A stretch of 34,652 nucleotides of DNA from a virus (taxonomy: Duplodnaviria > Heunggongvirae > Uroviricota > Caudoviricetes): IMG/VR virus record IMGVR_UViG_2541047785_000009; one strand, written 5' to 3'. The notes under the pieces are model-generated. The model was not told the DNA's origin, did not search any database, and was given only the letters and a program-made list of their open reading frames with translations. Shown here in pieces: positions 1 to 27,983 of the stretch. Made by a program: the position numbers and the translations under genes. The stretch's first letter is position 1; each line of letters starts with the position of its first letter.

Positions 1-1362
1 ATGTTTAAACCGGAACTCCTTTCCCCGGCGGGAACGCTGAAAAATATGCGTTACGCTTTCGCTTATGGCGCAGATGCTGTTTATGCGGGCCAGCCGCGTT
101 ATTCCCTGCGTGTGCGCAACAACGAATTCAACCACGAAAATCTTCAGCTCGGCATCAATGAAGCCCACGCGCTGGGGAAAAAGTTTTATGTCGTGGTCAA
201 CATTGCACCGCACAACGCCAAGCTGAAAACCTTTATCCGTGACCTGAAACCGGTGGTGGAAATGGGGCCGGATGCGCTGATTATGTCCGATCCAGGGCTG
301 ATTATGCTGGTGCGTGAGCACTTCCCTGAAATGCCGATCCACCTTTCGGTGCAGGCTAACGCCGTGAACTGGGCGACGGTGAAATTCTGGCAGCAAATGG
401 GCCTGACCCGCGTGATCCTCTCTCGCGAGCTGTCGCTGGAAGAGATTGAAGAGATCCGCAATCAGGTGCCGGATATGGAGATCGAGATCTTCGTTCACGG
501 CGCGCTGTGCATGGCCTACTCCGGTCGCTGCCTGCTCTCTGGCTATATCAACAAGCGCGACCCGAACCAGGGCACCTGCACCAACGCCTGCCGCTGGGAG
601 TACAACGTCCAGGAAGGGAAAGAAGATGATGTTGGCAACATCGTACACAAGTACGAGCCGATTCCGGTGCAAAATGTTGAGCCGACGCTGGGTATCGGCG
701 CACCAACCGACAAAGTGTTTATGATCGAAGAGGCCCAGCGTCCGGGCGAGTATATGACCGCGTTTGAAGATGAGCACGGCACTTACATCATGAACTCGAA
801 AGATCTGCGCGCCATCGCCCATGTAGAACGCCTGACCAAAATGGGCGTGCATTCGCTGAAAATCGAAGGTCGTACCAAATCTTTCTACTATTGTGCACGC
901 ACCGCACAGGTTTACCGCAAAGCTATCGATGACGCCGCTGCGGGAAAACCGTTCGATACCAGCCTGCTGGAAACTCTGGAAGGTCTGGCGCATCGTGGCT
1001 ATACCGAAGGTTTCCTGCGTCGTCATACTCACGACGATTATCAGAACTACGAATACGGTTATTCAGTTTCTGACCGCCAGCAGTTTGTTGGTGAGTTTAC
1101 CGGTGAGCGCAAGGGGGACCTCGCGGCGGTAGCGGTGAAAAATAAATTCTCCGTTGGCGACAGCCTTGAGCTGATGACGCCGCAAGGCAACATTAATTTT
1201 ACCCTTGAGCACATGGAAAACGCCAAAGGCGAAGCTATGCCGATAGCACCAGGCGATGGTTATACTGTGTGGCTCCCGGTCCCGCAGGATCTTGAGCTCA
1301 ATTACGCGCTGCTGATGCGTAATTTCTCCGGGGAAACCACGCGTAATCCCCACGGTAAGTGA
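1..1362 (+). CDS. yegQ: YegQ/TrhP, peptidase U32-family protein (host gene, complete)
   Basis: 453-aa ORF from the track, ATG at 1 and TGA at 1360-1362; protein recognised as E. coli YegQ; GC-rich host-like composition; forms the left chromosomal flank. Confidence 0.9.
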   Translation: MFKPELLSPAGTLKNMRYAFAYGADAVYAGQPRYSLRVRNNEFNHENLQLGINEAHALGKKFYVVVNIAPHNAKLKTFIRDLKPVVEMGPDALIMSDPGLIMLVREHFPEMPIHLSVQANAVNWATVKFWQQMGLTRVILSRELSLEEIEEIRNQVPDMEIEIFVHGALCMAYSGRCLLSGYINKRDPNQGTCTNACRWEYNVQEGKEDDVGNIVHKYEPIPVQNVEPTLGIGAPTDKVFMIEEAQRPGEYMTAFEDEHGTYIMNSKDLRAIAHVERLTKMGVHSLKIEGRTKSFYYCARTAQVYRKAIDDAAAGKPFDTSLLETLEGLAHRGYTEGFLRRHTHDDYQNYEYGYSVSDRQQFVGEFTGERKGDLAAVAVKNKFSVGDSLELMTPQGNINFTLEHMENAKGEAMPIAPGDGYTVWLPVPQDLELNYALLMRNFSGETTRNPHGK

Positions 1363-1506
1363 TTAATTTCGATTATTTTTCCCGGATGGAAAATTCTTAG
1401 AAACCGATCACATACAGCTGCATTTATTAAGGTTATCATCCGTTTCGCTGAAAAACATAACCCATAAAATGCTAGCTGTACCAGGAACCACCTCCTTAGC
1501 CTGTGT

Positions 1507-1534
1507 AATCTCCCTTACACGGGCTTATTTTTTA
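1507..1534. repeat. attL core: AATCTCCCTTACACGGGCTTATTTTTTA, direct repeat of 34150..34177
   Basis: 28-nt perfect identity with 34150..34177; the first 27 nt are the reverse complement of the P2 att core as I recall it (AAAAAATAAGCCCGTGTAAGGGAGATT). Confidence 0.85.
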
Positions 1535-8560: not shown

Positions 8561-9781
8561 ATGATTGATTTCATAACTACTAATACAGGGATTGTATTGA
8601 AATATGTTCCAGAAACAGCAGGTACATCTTGGGTTTGGAATGAATTAAAAACTCATTCAACTGTAACAATTTCTAAAGTTTTTTATTTTAATATTAGCGA
8701 TCTGCTCAATCCTCCGTCACCAAATCAAGATTTTGATAGTTATTTTTATGAGTTTCAGTTTGGAACTTTTAGTGGTGATTATATTGTTATACCAAGTTAT
8801 ATTTTAAATATTCAAAATGATTTATATATAAGTAAAGATATCAATCTTAGTAGGAGCGTCTTTGCTGCAGAGCGTAATATTTCTATTTTTGGTCGACTCT
8901 CGCGAATATTGAATCACAGCAATCCAATTTATATTGGCGGGGATTCTGCGGAGGCAATACCTTCTAATGTTTTTAGTGAGTTATTAAGCAAATTTCCTAA
9001 CTCGTACGAAGTAGATAAATATGCCGATGCTAGAGTACATACGATTCTTGAGCAATATTTGGAAGGCATGAAAGATGCCAGAGGCCTCTACGAAACATAT
9101 CTCAATAAAATAGAACCAATTAGAAAAAGTAATCTCGACTTAACAACTATCAAAGAATTAGAAATAGAAAAATACACTTTAATTAGAGATACCATTGAGA
9201 ATGCTTTAAGTACGAAACAGCACTGGTCCGAAAAAGATTGGCAAAAATTGATGGTGCAATTCCTTCTTCTTTTATTTCCAAAGTATATTCATATTATTGA
9301 AAACATTACCATCCATGATTACTACAGCATCCCAGGCGAGAAAAAAGATCGATACATAGATATAGGCTTGGTTGATTCTAATGGTAATTTAGATATTATC
9401 GAAGTTAAAAAGCCATTTGACGACAAGATCTTGCGCAGGACAAAGTATAGAGGAAATAGCATACCAACGTCTGAGCTAAGCGGTGGTATCATGCAAGCTG
9501 AAAAATATCTCTTCCATTTATCAAAATGGGGAACAAAAGGTGAAGACAACCTTACAAAAAAATATGCAAGTGAACTACCCTCTGGTATGAGCATTCATAT
9601 TTCTAACCCCAAGGCTATCATCATAGTTGGACGTGACCAAATTGGTAATGGAAATATGACAGAAAATCAAAAACTTGATTTCGAAATTATCAAGCGGAAG
9701 TATACCAATATGATGGACATCATTACCTACGATGACCTATTGAGACGGCTTAACCGTACAATTTCAGCACTTAAAAAGTAA
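8561..9781 (+). CDS. Cargo gene in Z/fun slot: 406-aa putative PD-(D/E)xK-family nuclease (restriction-endonuclease-like C-terminal domain); candidate anti-phage defence protein
   Basis: AT-rich ORF on the opposite strand to the flanking tail genes; RBS GGAGAGAG 5 nt before the ATG; C-terminal motif RYIDIGLVDSNGNLDIIEVKKP (D267, D272, E281-x-K283) followed by QAEKY (Q312, Y316), matching the hhhD...hhhExK plus QxxxY pattern of PD-(D/E)xK nucleases such as NucS/Hjc and Shedu DUF4263; N-terminal 250 aa has no recognisable motif. Confidence 0.8.
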   Translation: MIDFITTNTGIVLKYVPETAGTSWVWNELKTHSTVTISKVFYFNISDLLNPPSPNQDFDSYFYEFQFGTFSGDYIVIPSYILNIQNDLYISKDINLSRSVFAAERNISIFGRLSRILNHSNPIYIGGDSAEAIPSNVFSELLSKFPNSYEVDKYADARVHTILEQYLEGMKDARGLYETYLNKIEPIRKSNLDLTTIKELEIEKYTLIRDTIENALSTKQHWSEKDWQKLMVQFLLLLFPKYIHIIENITIHDYYSIPGEKKDRYIDIGLVDSNGNLDIIEVKKPFDDKILRRTKYRGNSIPTSELSGGIMQAEKYLFHLSKWGTKGEDNLTKKYASELPSGMSIHISNPKAIIIVGRDQIGNGNMTENQKLDFEIIKRKYTNMMDIITYDDLLRRLNRTISALKK

Positions 9782-14144: not shown

Positions 14145-14492
14145 TCAACTCACAGGGATGGTTAACGAAAGTGACTGGCCGGTGTCGTTGTGCTGGCCGG
14201 TTAACGTGACCGTCATTCGCCCGTCAAAGCTGCGTGCCGTGGTGACGGATGACAGGGTGACGCGGGGTTCCCATTTCAGCACCGCCATGTAACAGGCGAC
14301 CTTAATCTGCAACTCAAGCGCCGGGGTCTGCGGCTGGTCAATCATTGATGCCAGCAACGAGCCGTAATCACGACGCATCACCCGTGAGCCAACCGGCGTG
14401 CGCAGGATATCGCCGATACTCTGGCTGATATGTTCAAGGTCAGTGACAGTCAGGCCATCACTGCGATTCATTCCGAGATAACGTGCTGTCAT
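14145..14492 (-). CDS. W: Baseplate protein W
   Basis: 115-aa ORF, P2 gpW length and position. Confidence 0.9.
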   Translation of the reverse strand: MTARYLGMNRSDGLTVTDLEHISQSIGDILRTPVGSRVMRRDYGSLLASMIDQPQTPALELQIKVACYMAVLKWEPRVTLSSVTTARSFDGRMTVTLTGQHNDTGQSLSLTIPVS

Positions 14493-15124
14493 AGAGGACT
14501 CCCGGTTGTGCCGCCGCTGTCTCCTGGGTGTTTATGGGTATGCAGTACCTTACCGTTTGATGAGAGTTCACCGCCGGTGTGTTCAATGTTGCCGCGCATC
14601 GTCCCGCCCTTCTGCACTTCCAGCGTGCCGGTAATCAGCCTGTTGGTGCAGACCACCTCCGGTGTGTCCAGGGTGACGCGGGTTGATGCTTTCACCATGA
14701 CCACCGGCACCGTGGCAGTAACAGAATCAGAAGCCGTCACGCTGGCCGTTTTAATTCCGCTTACCGTAAGTGCACTGGTTTCGGGTTCATACTCAATCAC
14801 CGCCCCGTCAGGGAAACGGATATGCAGGGCATCCGCCGACGCAGACGGCGCGGGGTTATCGCCGGAATAAATCCCCGGCAGAACGAATGCCGTGTCGAGT
14901 TCACCGCCCACGGACAGAATCAGCACCTGTTCCCCCACGGAAGGTGCCCACCATGTGCGCGAACGACCGGCGCGATAGGTCAGCCACTGAAGCCAGTCGG
15001 TGCACATGCCGCCGGTCTGCACACGGCAGCGACCGGTGTTAAGGTCGGTTTCGACGATAATGCCGGTGCGAATCATGTTGCGCAGTGCGCGCGCGAGTTC
15101 CTGAATATTTGCGAGAGTGTTCAT
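14489..15124 (-). CDS. V: Baseplate spike protein V
   Basis: Track ORF 14489..15142; P2 gpV-like N-terminus MNTLANIQELARALRNMIRTG begins at the internal ATG 15124..15122, giving 211 aa. Confidence 0.85.
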   Translation of the reverse strand: MNTLANIQELARALRNMIRTGIIVETDLNTGRCRVQTGGMCTDWLQWLTYRAGRSRTWWAPSVGEQVLILSVGGELDTAFVLPGIYSGDNPAPSASADALHIRFPDGAVIEYEPETSALTVSGIKTASVTASDSVTATVPVVMVKASTRVTLDTPEVVCTNRLITGTLEVQKGGTMRGNIEHTGGELSSNGKVLHTHKHPGDSGGTTGSPL

Positions 15125-15207
15125 GCATGTGAGATTGCACAATATATAAAAGTTATGCTATCTGGATTCATTTGTAGAACGACCATACAACATTCGAGGA
15201 GAGCGTA

Positions 15208-15993
15208 ATGTTCAGTGATAATGTGACTAATGCGTGGTGGTTTATCTCTTTGTATCTATTTTTATTAATAGCATTAACATTTGTTACCTTTGGTAAAAGT
15301 AATCTTATGAGGTTTATTGCACATCATTTCAATCTTGAGTATTCAGACAGAAAGTTAAAAATGCTCGACAAAAAATGGCGCGACATTCAACTATTTAAAA
15401 TAATTAACGGAATCAATGTATCAGGCATCGAAGATGTGAGAATGATACAGCAGGGGCTGATTGATGGAAAACTAAAAACATCGTATTTTTTCCTTACTCG
15501 CATCTGGGGTGACATAACAAAACCACCACACATAATTAAAACAATAATTGTAATTCTGGCCAGTATTTTTTACATTCTCCTCGCATGTTACATACACAAC
15601 GAACAATCCGTTATAGTAAGGGATGCCATAGGCATACCATATAAAAACATGATGTACTATGTTTATAGTGACAAAGTTCTTTTATCCTTCAAAAATAAAG
15701 CAGTTGAATTTAATAAAACTTATAGCCTTGCCGATTGCAAGAGACTGCAAAACGTATTTATAAAAGACACACTTCCTGAAATCGCCTGCAATAAGCTCTT
15801 ACAGCTAAACGAGGAGGACTCCGAATGGTTAAGTCAGGAGATTAAAGATAATAACAGTCACAAAAAAGCATTATTAATACTATCCCTCGTCTATTTCACT
15901 TCAGGTCTGGTTATATTCCTGTCATATACAAAATTCTTTTACGCCAATAAGAAGGTTTTAGAATACAAAGCATCAAATAAAAATCACTCATAA
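15208..15993 (+). CDS. Cargo gene in V-S (orf30) slot: 261-aa predicted integral membrane protein with 3 TM helices, unknown function
   Basis: AT-rich ORF on the opposite strand to the late genes; RBS GAGGAGAG before the ATG at 15208; hydrophobic segments at about aa 9-29, 116-140 and 232-251; no enzymatic motif recognised. Confidence 0.75.
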   Translation: MFSDNVTNAWWFISLYLFLLIALTFVTFGKSNLMRFIAHHFNLEYSDRKLKMLDKKWRDIQLFKIINGINVSGIEDVRMIQQGLIDGKLKTSYFFLTRIWGDITKPPHIIKTIIVILASIFYILLACYIHNEQSVIVRDAIGIPYKNMMYYVYSDKVLLSFKNKAVEFNKTYSLADCKRLQNVFIKDTLPEIACNKLLQLNEEDSEWLSQEIKDNNSHKKALLILSLVYFTSGLVIFLSYTKFFYANKKVLEYKASNKNHS

Positions 15994-15999
15994 ACCTCT

Positions 16000-16034
16000 A
16001 AACATTGAGCGACCAGCATGGCCGCTCAATGTTT
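16000..16034. terminator. Perfect 12-bp-stem hairpin between cargo gene and S (likely bidirectional terminator)
   Basis: AAACATTGAGCG (16000-16011), 11-nt loop, CGCTCAATGTTT (16023-16034); 7 nt after the cargo-gene stop and about 30 nt after the S stop on the other strand. Confidence 0.5.
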
Positions 16035-16064
16035 AATTGCGCATCAGCCTCTGCCTGGATAAAA

Positions 16065-16517
16065 CTAACGCTCAAGGTGAGCCAGGATAATCTCTTCAAT
16101 CATCTGCACATCCTCACTGGTAAAGCCGAGCAGAGGACGCGCCGGATAATCAATTTTCTTACCGTCTTTCCGGTTTTCTTCCGACAGACCGAACTGATGC
16201 ACGCTGGCGATTTTCGGTGACTTCCCGCCGTAAAACTCCATTGATGCCTGTTCCGGGCTGGCGCGGATATGCAAAAAACGACTGGTGATAAGTTTCGCAA
16301 ACATTTTTCGCTTAACACGACCAGCCTTTTTTCTGGCGCTCTGCTGCTGGCGTGGCGCGTAGGGTGTGCCGTCCGGGGCTTTCTGAGCCATCACCCGACG
16401 CTGCTGACTCTGCCGCAGACGTTTCGCCAGTTCGGCGCTCAGTCGCCGACGCCCTGACGGTGACAGCGATTCAATCAGTCCGGTCAGCCGGTCTTCAAAA
16501 CGCTTAAACTCATTCAT
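16065..16517 (-). CDS. S: Tail completion protein S
   Basis: 150-aa ORF, P2 gpS length and position. Confidence 0.88.
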   Translation of the reverse strand: MNEFKRFEDRLTGLIESLSPSGRRRLSAELAKRLRQSQQRRVMAQKAPDGTPYAPRQQQSARKKAGRVKRKMFAKLITSRFLHIRASPEQASMEFYGGKSPKIASVHQFGLSEENRKDGKKIDYPARPLLGFTSEDVQMIEEIILAHLER

Positions 16518-25763: not shown

Positions 25764-27983
25764 ATGGAACTTAAATTAAAGAATATAACCAGCTATAAGA
25801 AAGATAGCTTCACGACTCTTAATCTCTCAAAAAAAATTAATATACTTTATGGTCACAACGGTTGTGGAAAATCAACCATATCTAATTATTTCTATAATCC
25901 AAATAACACGGACTACAAAGAATGCGAATGTCCTTTCATAGATACTTTTCGCCTATTGGTTTATAATACTAAGTTTGTTGAGGATAATTTTTATAATGCA
26001 AAAGAGCAAAAAGGAGTATTCACTTTAAGTAAGGAAAATGCTGACATTGAAAAAGAATTGTTGGAAAAAGAAGCTATAAGACAAGACCTACTTACAAAAT
26101 ACAAAGATAAAAAAAACGTTATTGAACGTTTAATTAAAGATAAAAACAATAAAGAAAATGAATATATTGATTTAATATGGAATAAAGCAGAACCTTTTAG
26201 ATCATCTGACTTAAAGAACTTGATGAAAGGTCAGTTAGGAAGCAAGAGATCATTTTATGAGCAAGTTAAAAAAGCCCCTCAAACCACTGACGTTAACATC
26301 GAGTCACTTGCTCAAGAATATAGTATTCTTTTAAAGAACAAAGATAAATTCACTGCATCAATTACACCTTTAGAAAAATATATCATTTCAGAAAAAGATA
26401 AAGAATCTTTATCCACTCCGATTATAGACTCAAGTAATAGCTATTTGTCAGAAACAATTAAACAACTTCAAAACCTTGACTGGGTGAAAAAAGGGAAGGA
26501 ATTATATTTAAATGGCACATGTTGCCCATTCTGCCAAGAAGACACTATTAAAGACAAATTTTTAGAAGCAATTGAATCTATCTTTGATGATAGCTACTCC
26601 AAGAAAGTTGACCAAATACGCATTATCAGATCGTCTTATGAATCCGCTACCATAGATAATTTAAGAAAAATAAAACAAGAGATTTCATCTTGTGAATTAA
26701 TCACCTCAAAAGAAAAAGATATAACATCATCTCATATAGCGTTATTAGAGGAAATAGCAAACAAAAACTTAAAATTGATGTTAGATAAAATCAATAACCC
26801 ATCTATATCTATTATTTTGGAATCCAATAGCGACCTTGAAGCAAAGGTAGTTGATAATATAACAGAGTACAACAATAGAATTAAAGAAATAAATATTAAA
26901 GTCAAACAATTTAAGGATAGTGAAAAGTCTATACGTTACAAAATATGGGGAGCAATAAGAGAATTATGCAACGCTGAGTTTGAAGCTTTCTCAAAATATG
27001 AGAATGACTATAAAATCATTTATGAACAATATCAACTTGAATTAAATACCATAAAAGAACAAGGAGATAACAATAGCAAAAAGATCAAAGAGCTACGCGA
27101 TCAAATATCTAACATTGATGCAACCATAGATTCTATAAATCAACGTCTAAAATTATTAGGAATTTATGGTTTTAGCATAAAAAAACACACTGAGAGCAAT
27201 GATAAATATATTATATCACGTTCTGAAAACACAACAGATAAAGATGTATACAGATCTCTTAGCGAGGGTGAAAAAACTTTAATTACCTTTCTCTACTTTC
27301 TGGAATGCTGTAAAGGTAAGACAGATAAGAATGATACGGATATGCGAGATGTATTTATCGTTATTGATGATCCAATATCCAGCCTCTCTCAAAATTATGT
27401 GTACGATATTGCTTCAATAATTCACCATGAAATAATCAACAATAACAAAGCAGTAAAGAAAACATTAATACTCACACATAACCTTTATTTCTTTCATGAA
27501 CTTATCAAATTAGCTCCTAGAAGCAAAGAAGATAGAACATTCAAGCGTGATTATTATCTTGGACGAGTAACAAAAAATGAATATAGCATAATTACAGAAA
27601 TAGAGAAAAAGAGCATTCAGAATGAATACCAGTCCCTATGGCAAGTATTAAAAGATGCGAAGGATGGAAGGGTAAATAAAGTTATAATACCTAACATCAT
27701 GAGAAATATACTGGAATACTACTTCGCATTTGTTCATAGAACGGATGCATTACAGACAGAGTTAAATAAACTTGCTAGCGATGATAAGAATAATGATTTT
27801 AGAGCATTTTATAGATACATTAATAGAGGTTCCCATTCAGATGCAGTTAATATCACAGACATGGGAGATATATCTCCAGAGAAATATATGGAGCAACTAA
27901 AAACCATTTTTCGTATGACTGGTGATGAAAAACATTATTTGAAAATGATGGACGAAGAGGAAGAGGAAACCGTTACCGCTTAG
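25764..27983 (+). CDS. Cargo gene in old/tin slot: 739-aa ABC/Rad50-like ATPase with coiled-coil CxxC zinc hook and C-terminal putative anticodon-nuclease domain (RloC/PrrC-like architecture)
   Basis: Strongly AT-rich ORF; RBS GAGG 7 nt before the ATG; Walker A G30-HN-G-C-GKST; long Lys/Glu-rich coiled-coil; C254-P-F-C257 hook; ABC signature L499-SEGEK; Walker B V530-FIVIDDP; H-loop T571-H572; C-terminal R647-x3-E651 and H691, resembling the PrrC/RloC Arg-Glu-His triad. Confidence 0.8.
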   Translation: MELKLKNITSYKKDSFTTLNLSKKINILYGHNGCGKSTISNYFYNPNNTDYKECECPFIDTFRLLVYNTKFVEDNFYNAKEQKGVFTLSKENADIEKELLEKEAIRQDLLTKYKDKKNVIERLIKDKNNKENEYIDLIWNKAEPFRSSDLKNLMKGQLGSKRSFYEQVKKAPQTTDVNIESLAQEYSILLKNKDKFTASITPLEKYIISEKDKESLSTPIIDSSNSYLSETIKQLQNLDWVKKGKELYLNGTCCPFCQEDTIKDKFLEAIESIFDDSYSKKVDQIRIIRSSYESATIDNLRKIKQEISSCELITSKEKDITSSHIALLEEIANKNLKLMLDKINNPSISIILESNSDLEAKVVDNITEYNNRIKEINIKVKQFKDSEKSIRYKIWGAIRELCNAEFEAFSKYENDYKIIYEQYQLELNTIKEQGDNNSKKIKELRDQISNIDATIDSINQRLKLLGIYGFSIKKHTESNDKYIISRSENTTDKDVYRSLSEGEKTLITFLYFLECCKGKTDKNDTDMRDVFIVIDDPISSLSQNYVYDIASIIHHEIINNNKAVKKTLILTHNLYFFHELIKLAPRSKEDRTFKRDYYLGRVTKNEYSIITEIEKKSIQNEYQSLWQVLKDAKDGRVNKVIIPNIMRNILEYYFAFVHRTDALQTELNKLASDDKNNDFRAFYRYINRGSHSDAVNITDMGDISPEKYMEQLKTIFRMTGDEKHYLKMMDEEEEETVTA

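Follow-up and report, generated by a model that had tools for sequence, protein, structure and literature searches.

Phage P2 orf30 is an accessory gene for a predicted inner-membrane protein that outlives its prophage and may act against other phages

We analysed a stretch of 34,652 nucleotides (nt) from IMG/VR virus record IMGVR_UViG_2541047785_000009 (the window, by which we mean the whole stretch), a P2-like prophage in which an AT-rich open reading frame (ORF), orf30, lies among the late genes between V and S. Judged by its sequence and its position, this gene is phage P2's own accessory gene orf30 and not an unknown occupant of an "orf30 slot". It is carried by a minority of P2-like phages, its product has three predicted transmembrane (TM) helices and soluble domains under purifying selection, and intact copies persist where no phage remains. 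We propose, with a probability of about 0.45 and thus slightly short of even odds, that Orf30 is an envelope-level anti-phage factor of the lysogen, working in superinfection exclusion or in infection sensing at the inner membrane. Nearly every gene of the textbook phage P2 has been given a role, and orf30 is among the few still lacking one since the 1990s.

The orf30 coding sequence (15208..15993, + strand) opens with an ATG, closes with a TAA at 15991-15993 and encodes 261 amino acids (aa). Its Shine-Dalgarno sequence, GAGGAGAG (15196..15203, +), sets a GGAG core 6 nt ahead of the start codon, is kept as (A/G)AGGAG in six other alleles and has AAGGAG as its counterpart at the equivalent place in Serratia homologues. 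The gene is 33.1% GC (35.9% at third codon positions, GC3), against 50.4% for the window, 59% for V and 54% for S, in agreement with the initial annotation, which had described an AT-rich plus-strand ORF with a strong ribosome-binding site at this place. The interval 15125..16064 is 94.8% identical in nt to phage P2 (AF063097), and the product is 90% identical in aa to P2 Orf30 (AAD03281). The P2 protein is likewise 261 aa long, its gene lies in this position and orientation between S and V and is followed by the same terminator hairpin, and the upstream region with the late promoter PV and its site for the activator Ogr is 99% identical. The two genes are allelic variants only, whose replacements fall mostly in the three TM segments. 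The feature is not new: orf30 has been catalogued since P2 was sequenced, and the P2 record labels it "orf30 / Orf30 / nonessential". Databases name the product "hypothetical protein" or, in UniProt, "Uncharacterized 30.4 kDa protein in S-V intergenic region", and phrog_2407 ("unknown function") matches residues 1-261 of 261 (E 5.6e-145). The function is likewise listed as unknown in the literature, where the site is described as one of three P2 regions that acquire foreign genes (PMC3091744, PMC2771037, PMC6823313). What we add to these entries is a definition of the protein family, a topology model, the long residence of the family in its slot, its retention after prophage decay and the defence-like character of other cargo found between S and V.

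orf30 is an accessory gene and not a core P2 gene. Its slot is bounded on the left by V, the baseplate spike gene (14489..15124, −; 211 aa, 97% aa identity to P2 gpV by tblastn), whose operon starts, according to the P2 annotation, at the first base of V, and on the right by the tail completion gene S (16065..16517, −; 150 aa, 98% aa identity to P2 gpS). The variable cassette between them (15125..16064, no strand assigned) is the whole intergenic region: PV promoter region, orf30 and terminator. It coincides exactly with the interval singled out in the initial annotation. When this filled slot was compared with an empty one (locus L018, gap of 69 bp), homology ended exactly at the start codon of V and the stop codon of S; with such breakpoints, the entire intergenic region, PV region included, is exchanged as a single cassette. 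Among 78 P2-like contigs of IMG/VR with V and S both present, the slot was empty (69 bp) 53 times, held orf30 16 times and held other cargo of 0.8-1.7 kb in the remaining 9; a 17th copy of orf30 lies on a contig without S, and 16 of the 17 copies are intact. A census of 5426 complete E. coli genomes placed P2-type V at 1795 sites in 1574 genomes and orf30 at 483 sites in 464 genomes (~9%), corresponding to ~27% of P2-type V loci, which is far from the distribution of a conserved core gene. The comparison of slot contents (empty, orf30 or other cargo) also upholds the view of the initial annotation that the gene sits in a variable slot, interrupting the late array on the opposite strand with its own Shine-Dalgarno sequence and terminator. 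A moron is an accessory gene that lies between tail genes, has a terminator of its own and is expressed from the prophage; in the Hendrix/Juhala sense, orf30 shows presence or absence at a precise junction, a distinct composition and a factor-independent terminator.

Three observations on the slot stand beside this. The one IMG/VR copy that is not intact (L068) measures 785 nt, a 1-nt deletion leading to premature stops, and represents a pseudogene or a sequencing error. The PV region (15125..15207) is not conserved between the filled slot and the empty one (L018 3432..3500), so that cargo and late-promoter region are swapped together. The empty 69-bp slot has its own TGT...ACA site beside the S stop codon and a GC-rich hairpin, GCCGCCGG...CCGGCGGC, right before the V start.

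Orf30 is predicted, by hydropathy and structure modelling, to be an inner-membrane protein with three helices. Hydrophobic stretches were called by Kyte-Doolittle hydropathy in 19-residue windows, which gave three of them (residues ~9-28, 111-129 and 220-241, peaks 2.1-2.6): TM1 (15232..15291, +), TM2 (15538..15594, +, peak 2.59) and TM3 (15865..15930, +). An AlphaFold2 model built on a 15-sequence alignment (pLDDT, the predicted local distance difference test, 78.5) renders TM1 as a helix of residues 7-28 and TM2 as a helix of residues 109-135, with TM3 and the tail forming a single long helix (202-260). Loop 1 (aa 29-110; 15292..15537, +; net charge +6) is a predicted cytoplasmic domain (30-94) of helices 30-40, 48-67 and 74-86, and loop 2 (aa 130-219; 15595..15864, +; net charge −1) a predicted periplasmic domain made of a four-strand sheet (141-173) and helices (174-198) that bear C177 and C194. 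The C-terminal tail (aa 242-261; 15931..15990, +) is lysine-rich and predicted to be cytoplasmic (five lysines or arginines against one acidic residue, net charge +4). Both loops are rich in lysine and arginine (14 in 82 residues and 12 in 90), and hydropathy and charge counts together bear out the three hydrophobic helices parted by lysine-rich soluble segments that had first been noticed in the translation.

The orientation of the protein was deduced from the distribution of these charges. The N-terminus ahead of TM1 has 8 residues, none of them lysine or arginine, and is predicted to be periplasmic; within 15 residues of the TM helices, nine lysines or arginines lie on the proposed inside and four on the proposed outside. 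We favour an N-out/C-in topology, which fits the positive-inside rule. Such a topology would place the conserved cysteine pair in the periplasm, where a disulfide is possible, and C177 and C194 are probably joined by one. A cleavable signal peptide was considered for TM1 and ruled out, as its n-region carries no positive charge.

Selection acts on the soluble domains of Orf30, and the TM helices drift. Seven alleles from E. coli and Yersinia phages (86-99% nt identity) are all open over 786 nt, and the ratio of nonsynonymous to synonymous substitution rates (dN/dS) across them is 0.49 for orf30 and only 0.07-0.14 for the nearby genes W, V, S and R, while the synonymous rate (dS) of orf30 is only ~1.5-fold above that of these neighbours. 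Broken down by region, dN/dS reaches 1.2, 0.87 and 1.8 in TM1, TM2 and TM3 and falls to 0.38 in loop 1, 0.26 in loop 2 and 0.23 in the tail; the high overall value is explained by hydrophobic residues exchanging near-freely in membrane anchors. Diversifying selection on a recognition surface was ruled out as a cause, since it is the TM helices, rather than the periplasmic loop, that show the excess. With drifting helices and constrained soluble domains, a channel lined by the TM helices becomes unlikely, and we prefer a model in which the soluble domains would do the work and the TM helices would mainly serve as anchors.

The same contrast is found across the wider family. A word-indexed protein search with Orf30 returned five close clusters only, and an exhaustive HMMER scan of 1.84 billion representatives gave 40 hits, including ~20 full-length proteins at 20-33% identity. 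The hosts are Escherichia/Shigella, Enterobacter, Serratia, Yersinia, Pectobacterium, Cronobacter and Sodalis, all proteins being named "hypothetical", and the family spans the Enterobacterales at 20-40% identity. In an alignment of 23 members, from which conservation was read, the TM segments hold no invariant residue and all invariant positions fall in the soluble loops. Loop 1 is the most conserved part (D-x-Q-L-F-K/R-x3-G-I/V-N-V-x4-D-A ... G-x-L ... F-G-x-I-G), with G68, D76 and G87 invariant and Q61 nearly so. Loop 2 is variable, but C194 is invariant, C177 is present in most members and an "E-L-x-x-A-I" helix is kept; the tail retains N247 and K254, the latter near-invariant.

Members of the family that could be placed in an intact prophage all occupy one position. 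In each of seven lineages (Serratia nevei, S. ureilytica, S. quinivorans, a metagenome contig, Yersinia, Pectobacterium and Enterobacter), the homologue lies between V and S, divergent from V and in the same orientation. Because slot and orientation are shared at 20-40% protein identity, the genomic evidence identifies the family as an old resident of the S-V slot and not a recent arrival. All members are 32-38% GC (GC3 32-42%) within flanks of 50-62% GC. A recent horizontal insertion awaiting amelioration was ruled out as the source of this composition, since GC and GC3 are low in every lineage, including the vertically inherited chromosomal copies; the AT-richness is instead maintained, probably by selection, for which silencing or regulation of the H-NS type is an obvious candidate. 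Two of these slots carry additional genes: the Pectobacterium slot (L103 4800..6440) has three, an ORF6N-domain protein and two small ORFs, and the Enterobacter slot (L005 4945..5766, −) encodes an extra 273-aa protein that has no Pfam or PADLOC match.

Critically, orf30 survives the loss of its phage. Serratia rubidaea (L004) and S. odorifera (L009/L010) have intact homologues of 253 and 250 aa, 52% identical to each other, beside which V, S and R are only fragments and the remaining prophage is gone. In Enterobacter cloacae (L102 2324..4765), an intact 254-aa homologue stands alone between yegQ-CyaR and yegS, at the same attachment (att) site as the prophage of the window and in the same context in 24 of 24 contigs; no remnant of V, S, R or W was detectable at this locus. 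A profile search of genome contigs with a narrower alignment found 3 Enterobacter loci, and in two other Enterobacter species the ortholog is flanked by an extracytoplasmic-function (ECF) sigma gene cluster on one side and a chemoreceptor gene on the other, phage genes being absent within 4 kb. For the stand-alone Enterobacter ortholog, dS is 0.17 (0.09-0.24 for host flanking genes) and dN/dS 0.21. The intact copies, whether beside prophage fragments or by themselves on a chromosome, show that Orf30 is useful to the cell on its own, and this persistence without a phage is strong evidence against its taking part in lysis or in the assembly of virions.

Transcription of orf30 was examined from its two ends. 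A perfect hairpin (16000..16034, both strands; arms 16000..16011 and 16023..16034, 12 pairs, 11-nt loop) begins after the 6 nt that follow the stop codon. Its RNA folds at −22.7 kcal/mol (z −3.2) when read from the + strand and at −29.6 kcal/mol (z −4.3) when read from the − strand, none of 200 shuffles folding as well, and the perfect 12-bp hairpin that had been noticed just past the gene is thus confirmed on both strands. No clean T-run follows the stem. P2 annotates the hairpin as "putative rho-independent terminator for O operon", the operon in question being O..S, which converges on orf30; the best reading is therefore a bidirectional terminator that orf30 (+) shares with the O..S late operon (−). 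An Rfam scan around it gave chance matches to the hairpin only.

At the other end, the upstream intergenic region is 99% conserved in 7 alleles and contains the Ogr binding site of PV (15166..15193, −), transferred from AF063097 10239-10266, which serves the V operon and not orf30. The orf30 start codon lies 15 nt from this site, the sole one nearby, and the gene runs opposite to every late operon; Ogr acting from about −55 would set a rightward start inside orf30, making late activation unlikely. The gene would then be transcribed on its own, against the late operons, and end at the hairpin shared with O..S. Hand-picked weak promoter candidates (TTCATG-N17-TATATA, ~15120-15148) were set aside, such matches being expected in AT-rich DNA. 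All five promoter-like matches in the scanned region lie within orf30 (15442..15899, both strands; for example GTGACA-N16-CATAAT at 15509..15536) and are likely spurious, as shuffled sequences gave 3.5 +/- 1.9. In the Serratia homologues, an extended −10-like motif, TGCTACAAT or TGCTAATAT, occurs ~20 nt ahead of the AAGGAG Shine-Dalgarno sequence (L011 4967..4975, with equivalents in L004, L008 and L012) and abuts or overlaps GGCACAACA, a half-site for the activator of PV; such a motif is missing from the E. coli cassette, which has no room for that arrangement.

What then might Orf30 do? In the role that we consider most probable, stated above with its odds, Orf30 would serve the carrier cell and not the building or release of virions. 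The ~80-residue conserved helical domain would face the cytoplasm, and the ~90-residue sheet-plus-helix domain would face the periplasm with the C177-C194 disulfide as a staple. The anti-phage proposal is drawn from the predicted inner-membrane location, from the defence-like cargo found in the S-V slot, from the Shedu and PDC-S06 genes of the same prophage, from the survival of the gene where the prophage has decayed and from the richness of P2-like accessory slots in defence genes (PMC9122126, PMC9519451, PMC13586616). The alternative S-V cargo consists of AT-rich (34-38% GC) single genes (loci L022/L048, L029, L055, L087, L090 and L095-L097), among which are genes for a 508-aa AAA+TIR protein and a 414-aa AAA ATPase, both PADLOC candidate PDC-S59, and a 366-aa RelA_SpoT-domain protein, PADLOC candidate PDC-S33; three further products, of 251 aa (with an HNH-like Cys motif), 247 aa and 389 aa (a membrane protein), are unclassified. 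With this content, the S-V slot looks like a third, little-studied hotspot of defence cargo in P2-like phages, and a survey from 2026 speaks, in general terms only, of a hotspot "within the tail genes". The prophage of the window carries defence-like genes in its other two slots as well: Shedu SduA, 406 aa, in the Z/fun slot (8561..9781, +; PADLOC PDLC04067, E 4e-234; Pfam SduA_C), and a 739-aa AAA_13 ATPase in the old/tin slot, which is flanked by gene A and the portal gene (25764..27983, +; PDC-S06, E 6e-253), which also has a weaker PrrC-like match. Like orf30, the defence genes known from P2 slots (old, tin, fun/Z and the hotspot cargo in PMC9122126 and PMC9519451) are AT-rich, single-gene and swappable; Orf30 differs from them in its slot and in matching no catalogued system.

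Functional parallels can be found among small membrane proteins of other prophages. HK97 gp15 is reportedly a prophage-expressed membrane protein that blocks DNA entry. It is labelled "moron product" in NC_002167, and its gene is likewise a single small membrane-protein gene among late tail genes, unlike its flanks in composition, with a hairpin terminator right after the stop and presence/absence polymorphism. In contrast, gp15 has 62 aa and one TM helix, while Orf30 has 261 aa, three TM helices and two folded soluble domains, runs antiparallel to the late genes and is unrelated in sequence. P22 SieA and SieB are also prophage-encoded and membrane-associated and target superinfecting phage, either at the envelope or at an early stage of infection; their size and architecture differ from those of Orf30 and there is no homology, leaving a functional analogy only. 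By structure, the top matches, all weak, are claudin/TARP-like tetraspan folds, in which, as in Orf30, a small beta-sheet sits on the outer side of a bundle of TM helices.

A number of results weigh against an anti-phage role and keep its odds where we set them. PADLOC-DB 2.0, which covers known and candidate defence systems, yielded 0 families at E <= 10 for Orf30; Foldseek of the model against BFVD and PDB found nothing at E <= 0.001; and hhalign gave probabilities of 0.2% for P22 SieA, 0.2% for P22 SieB and 0.6% for HK97 gp15. Guilt by association is weak, PDC families being candidates only, and 4 of the 6 alternative cargo types of the S-V slot have no defence or family match. That the gene is kept once the prophage has decayed would be expected of any function that benefits the host, and not of defence specifically. 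The exclusion phenotypes known from classical P2 genetics belong to old, tin and fun(Z), not to orf30. Recent papers on P2 hotspots cover the old/tin and Z/fun loci and not the S-V slot, and no functional assignment or phenotype of orf30 was found in accessible papers. The weakest link of any functional model is expression of orf30 in E. coli lysogens: a scan for sigma-70-like promoters upstream of the ATG in this window returned none that passed. The superinfection-exclusion or abortive-infection (Abi) role suggested by the initial annotation thus retains circumstantial support, from an accessory membrane protein among defence-like slot cargo, and lacks any sequence match to catalogued defence systems.

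Sequence and fold searches bear on the other explanations too. Orf30 has no Pfam, NCBIfam or PADLOC family above threshold and no enzymatic or signalling domain in these collections; DUF6535 at 18.6 bits (cutoff 23.9) and a tick protein at 15 bits are sub-threshold noise, and a profile search of PDB sequences gave TM noise only (NDH chain 4, E >= 0.14). Together with the fold searches, this sustains the early statement that the protein has no enzymatic motif and belongs to no named family, with the qualification that the gene itself is the catalogued orf30. The lack of a signalling domain counts against what we regard as an unlikely, if serious, alternative, namely that Orf30 is a lysogenic-conversion factor unrelated to defence, acting in envelope physiology, signalling, stress or niche fitness in the way that lambda bor and lom confer serum resistance and adhesion on the carrier cell. 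The persistence data, with copies in decayed prophages and stand-alone orthologs under purifying selection, are equally compatible with conversion; a conserved cytoplasmic domain joined to a more variable periplasmic one resembles a transmembrane sensor or adaptor, the periplasmic loop bears no sign of an arms race in E. coli (dN/dS 0.26), and no defence model is matched. Against conversion, the other identifiable cargo of the slot is defence-like and not virulence-like, and P2-like accessory slots hold mostly defence genes (PMC9122126, PMC9519451, PMC13586616). The initial annotation had thought of membrane depolarisation, and an Abi toxin that depolarises or permeabilises the inner membrane through its three TM helices, RexB-type or holin-like, would suit a single-gene cassette whose slot-mates include Abi-type effectors (TIR, RelA_SpoT) and whose AT-richness in every lineage would fit tight silencing, for example by H-NS. 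Such a mechanism is not borne out by the protein, in which the near-neutral TM helices have no invariant residue and the conserved parts are the soluble domains; no partner or sensor gene and no PADLOC match accompany orf30, which is moreover stably carried alone on chromosomes, and we consider a depolarising toxin quite improbable.

An accessory role in the phage life cycle (in the timing of lysis, in assembling the tail or baseplate, in DNA entry or in the interaction with the satellite P4) would draw on the position of orf30 between lysis/tail-completion genes and baseplate genes, kept in P2-like phages of seven lineages, and on the proximity of its start codon to the PV Ogr site, which makes coupling to late regulation conceivable. 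This role also appears quite improbable to us, given the "nonessential" label in P2, the absence of orf30 from ~70% of closely related P2-like genomes, the orientation against all late operons with an Ogr-driven rightward start expected inside the ORF, and the intact copies where no phage remains. Neither family, phrog nor fold searches revealed homology to virion, structural, holin, antiholin or lysis proteins, a relationship that would have spoken against the idea of a membrane-acting defence factor from the outset. Finally, orf30 might be a functionless passenger, either a decaying acquired ORF or spacer and terminator DNA between late operons. An overall dN/dS far above that of the neighbours, the lack of a known function and the frameshifted IMG/VR copy point that way. 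However, the ORF remains intact and constant in length over the whole range of protein identity between 99% and ~20%, its soluble loops and its chromosomal orthologs are under purifying selection, and, since an empty slot of 69 bp suffices, orf30 DNA is not required as a spacer; a passenger is highly improbable.

Returning to the anti-phage proposal, a wider formulation is that the Orf30 family constitutes a new single-gene inner-membrane system for anti-phage action or infection sensing, without sequence or fold relatives and long carried between S and V by P2-like phages across the Enterobacterales, that the S-V slot is a third, overlooked defence hotspot whose cargo is exchanged along with the PV promoter region and that the gene was repeatedly domesticated after prophage decay; we put this forward tentatively, with the odds somewhat against it. 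Were Orf30 an anti-phage or envelope factor, the picture of the P2 accessory slots (old/tin, Z/fun and orf30) would be complete, a membrane protein family without known relatives would join the defence repertoire, and the S-V slot would be flagged for mining of further cargo. With orf30 in ~9% of complete E. coli genomes and as the sole prophage survivor in E. cloacae, a phenotype would concern many clinical and commensal strains. The prophage of the window itself is inserted next to yegQ (peptidase U32, 1..1362) and the gene for the small RNA CyaR/RyeE (1445..1530), the latter recognised by Rfam RF00112 at 100.7 bits.

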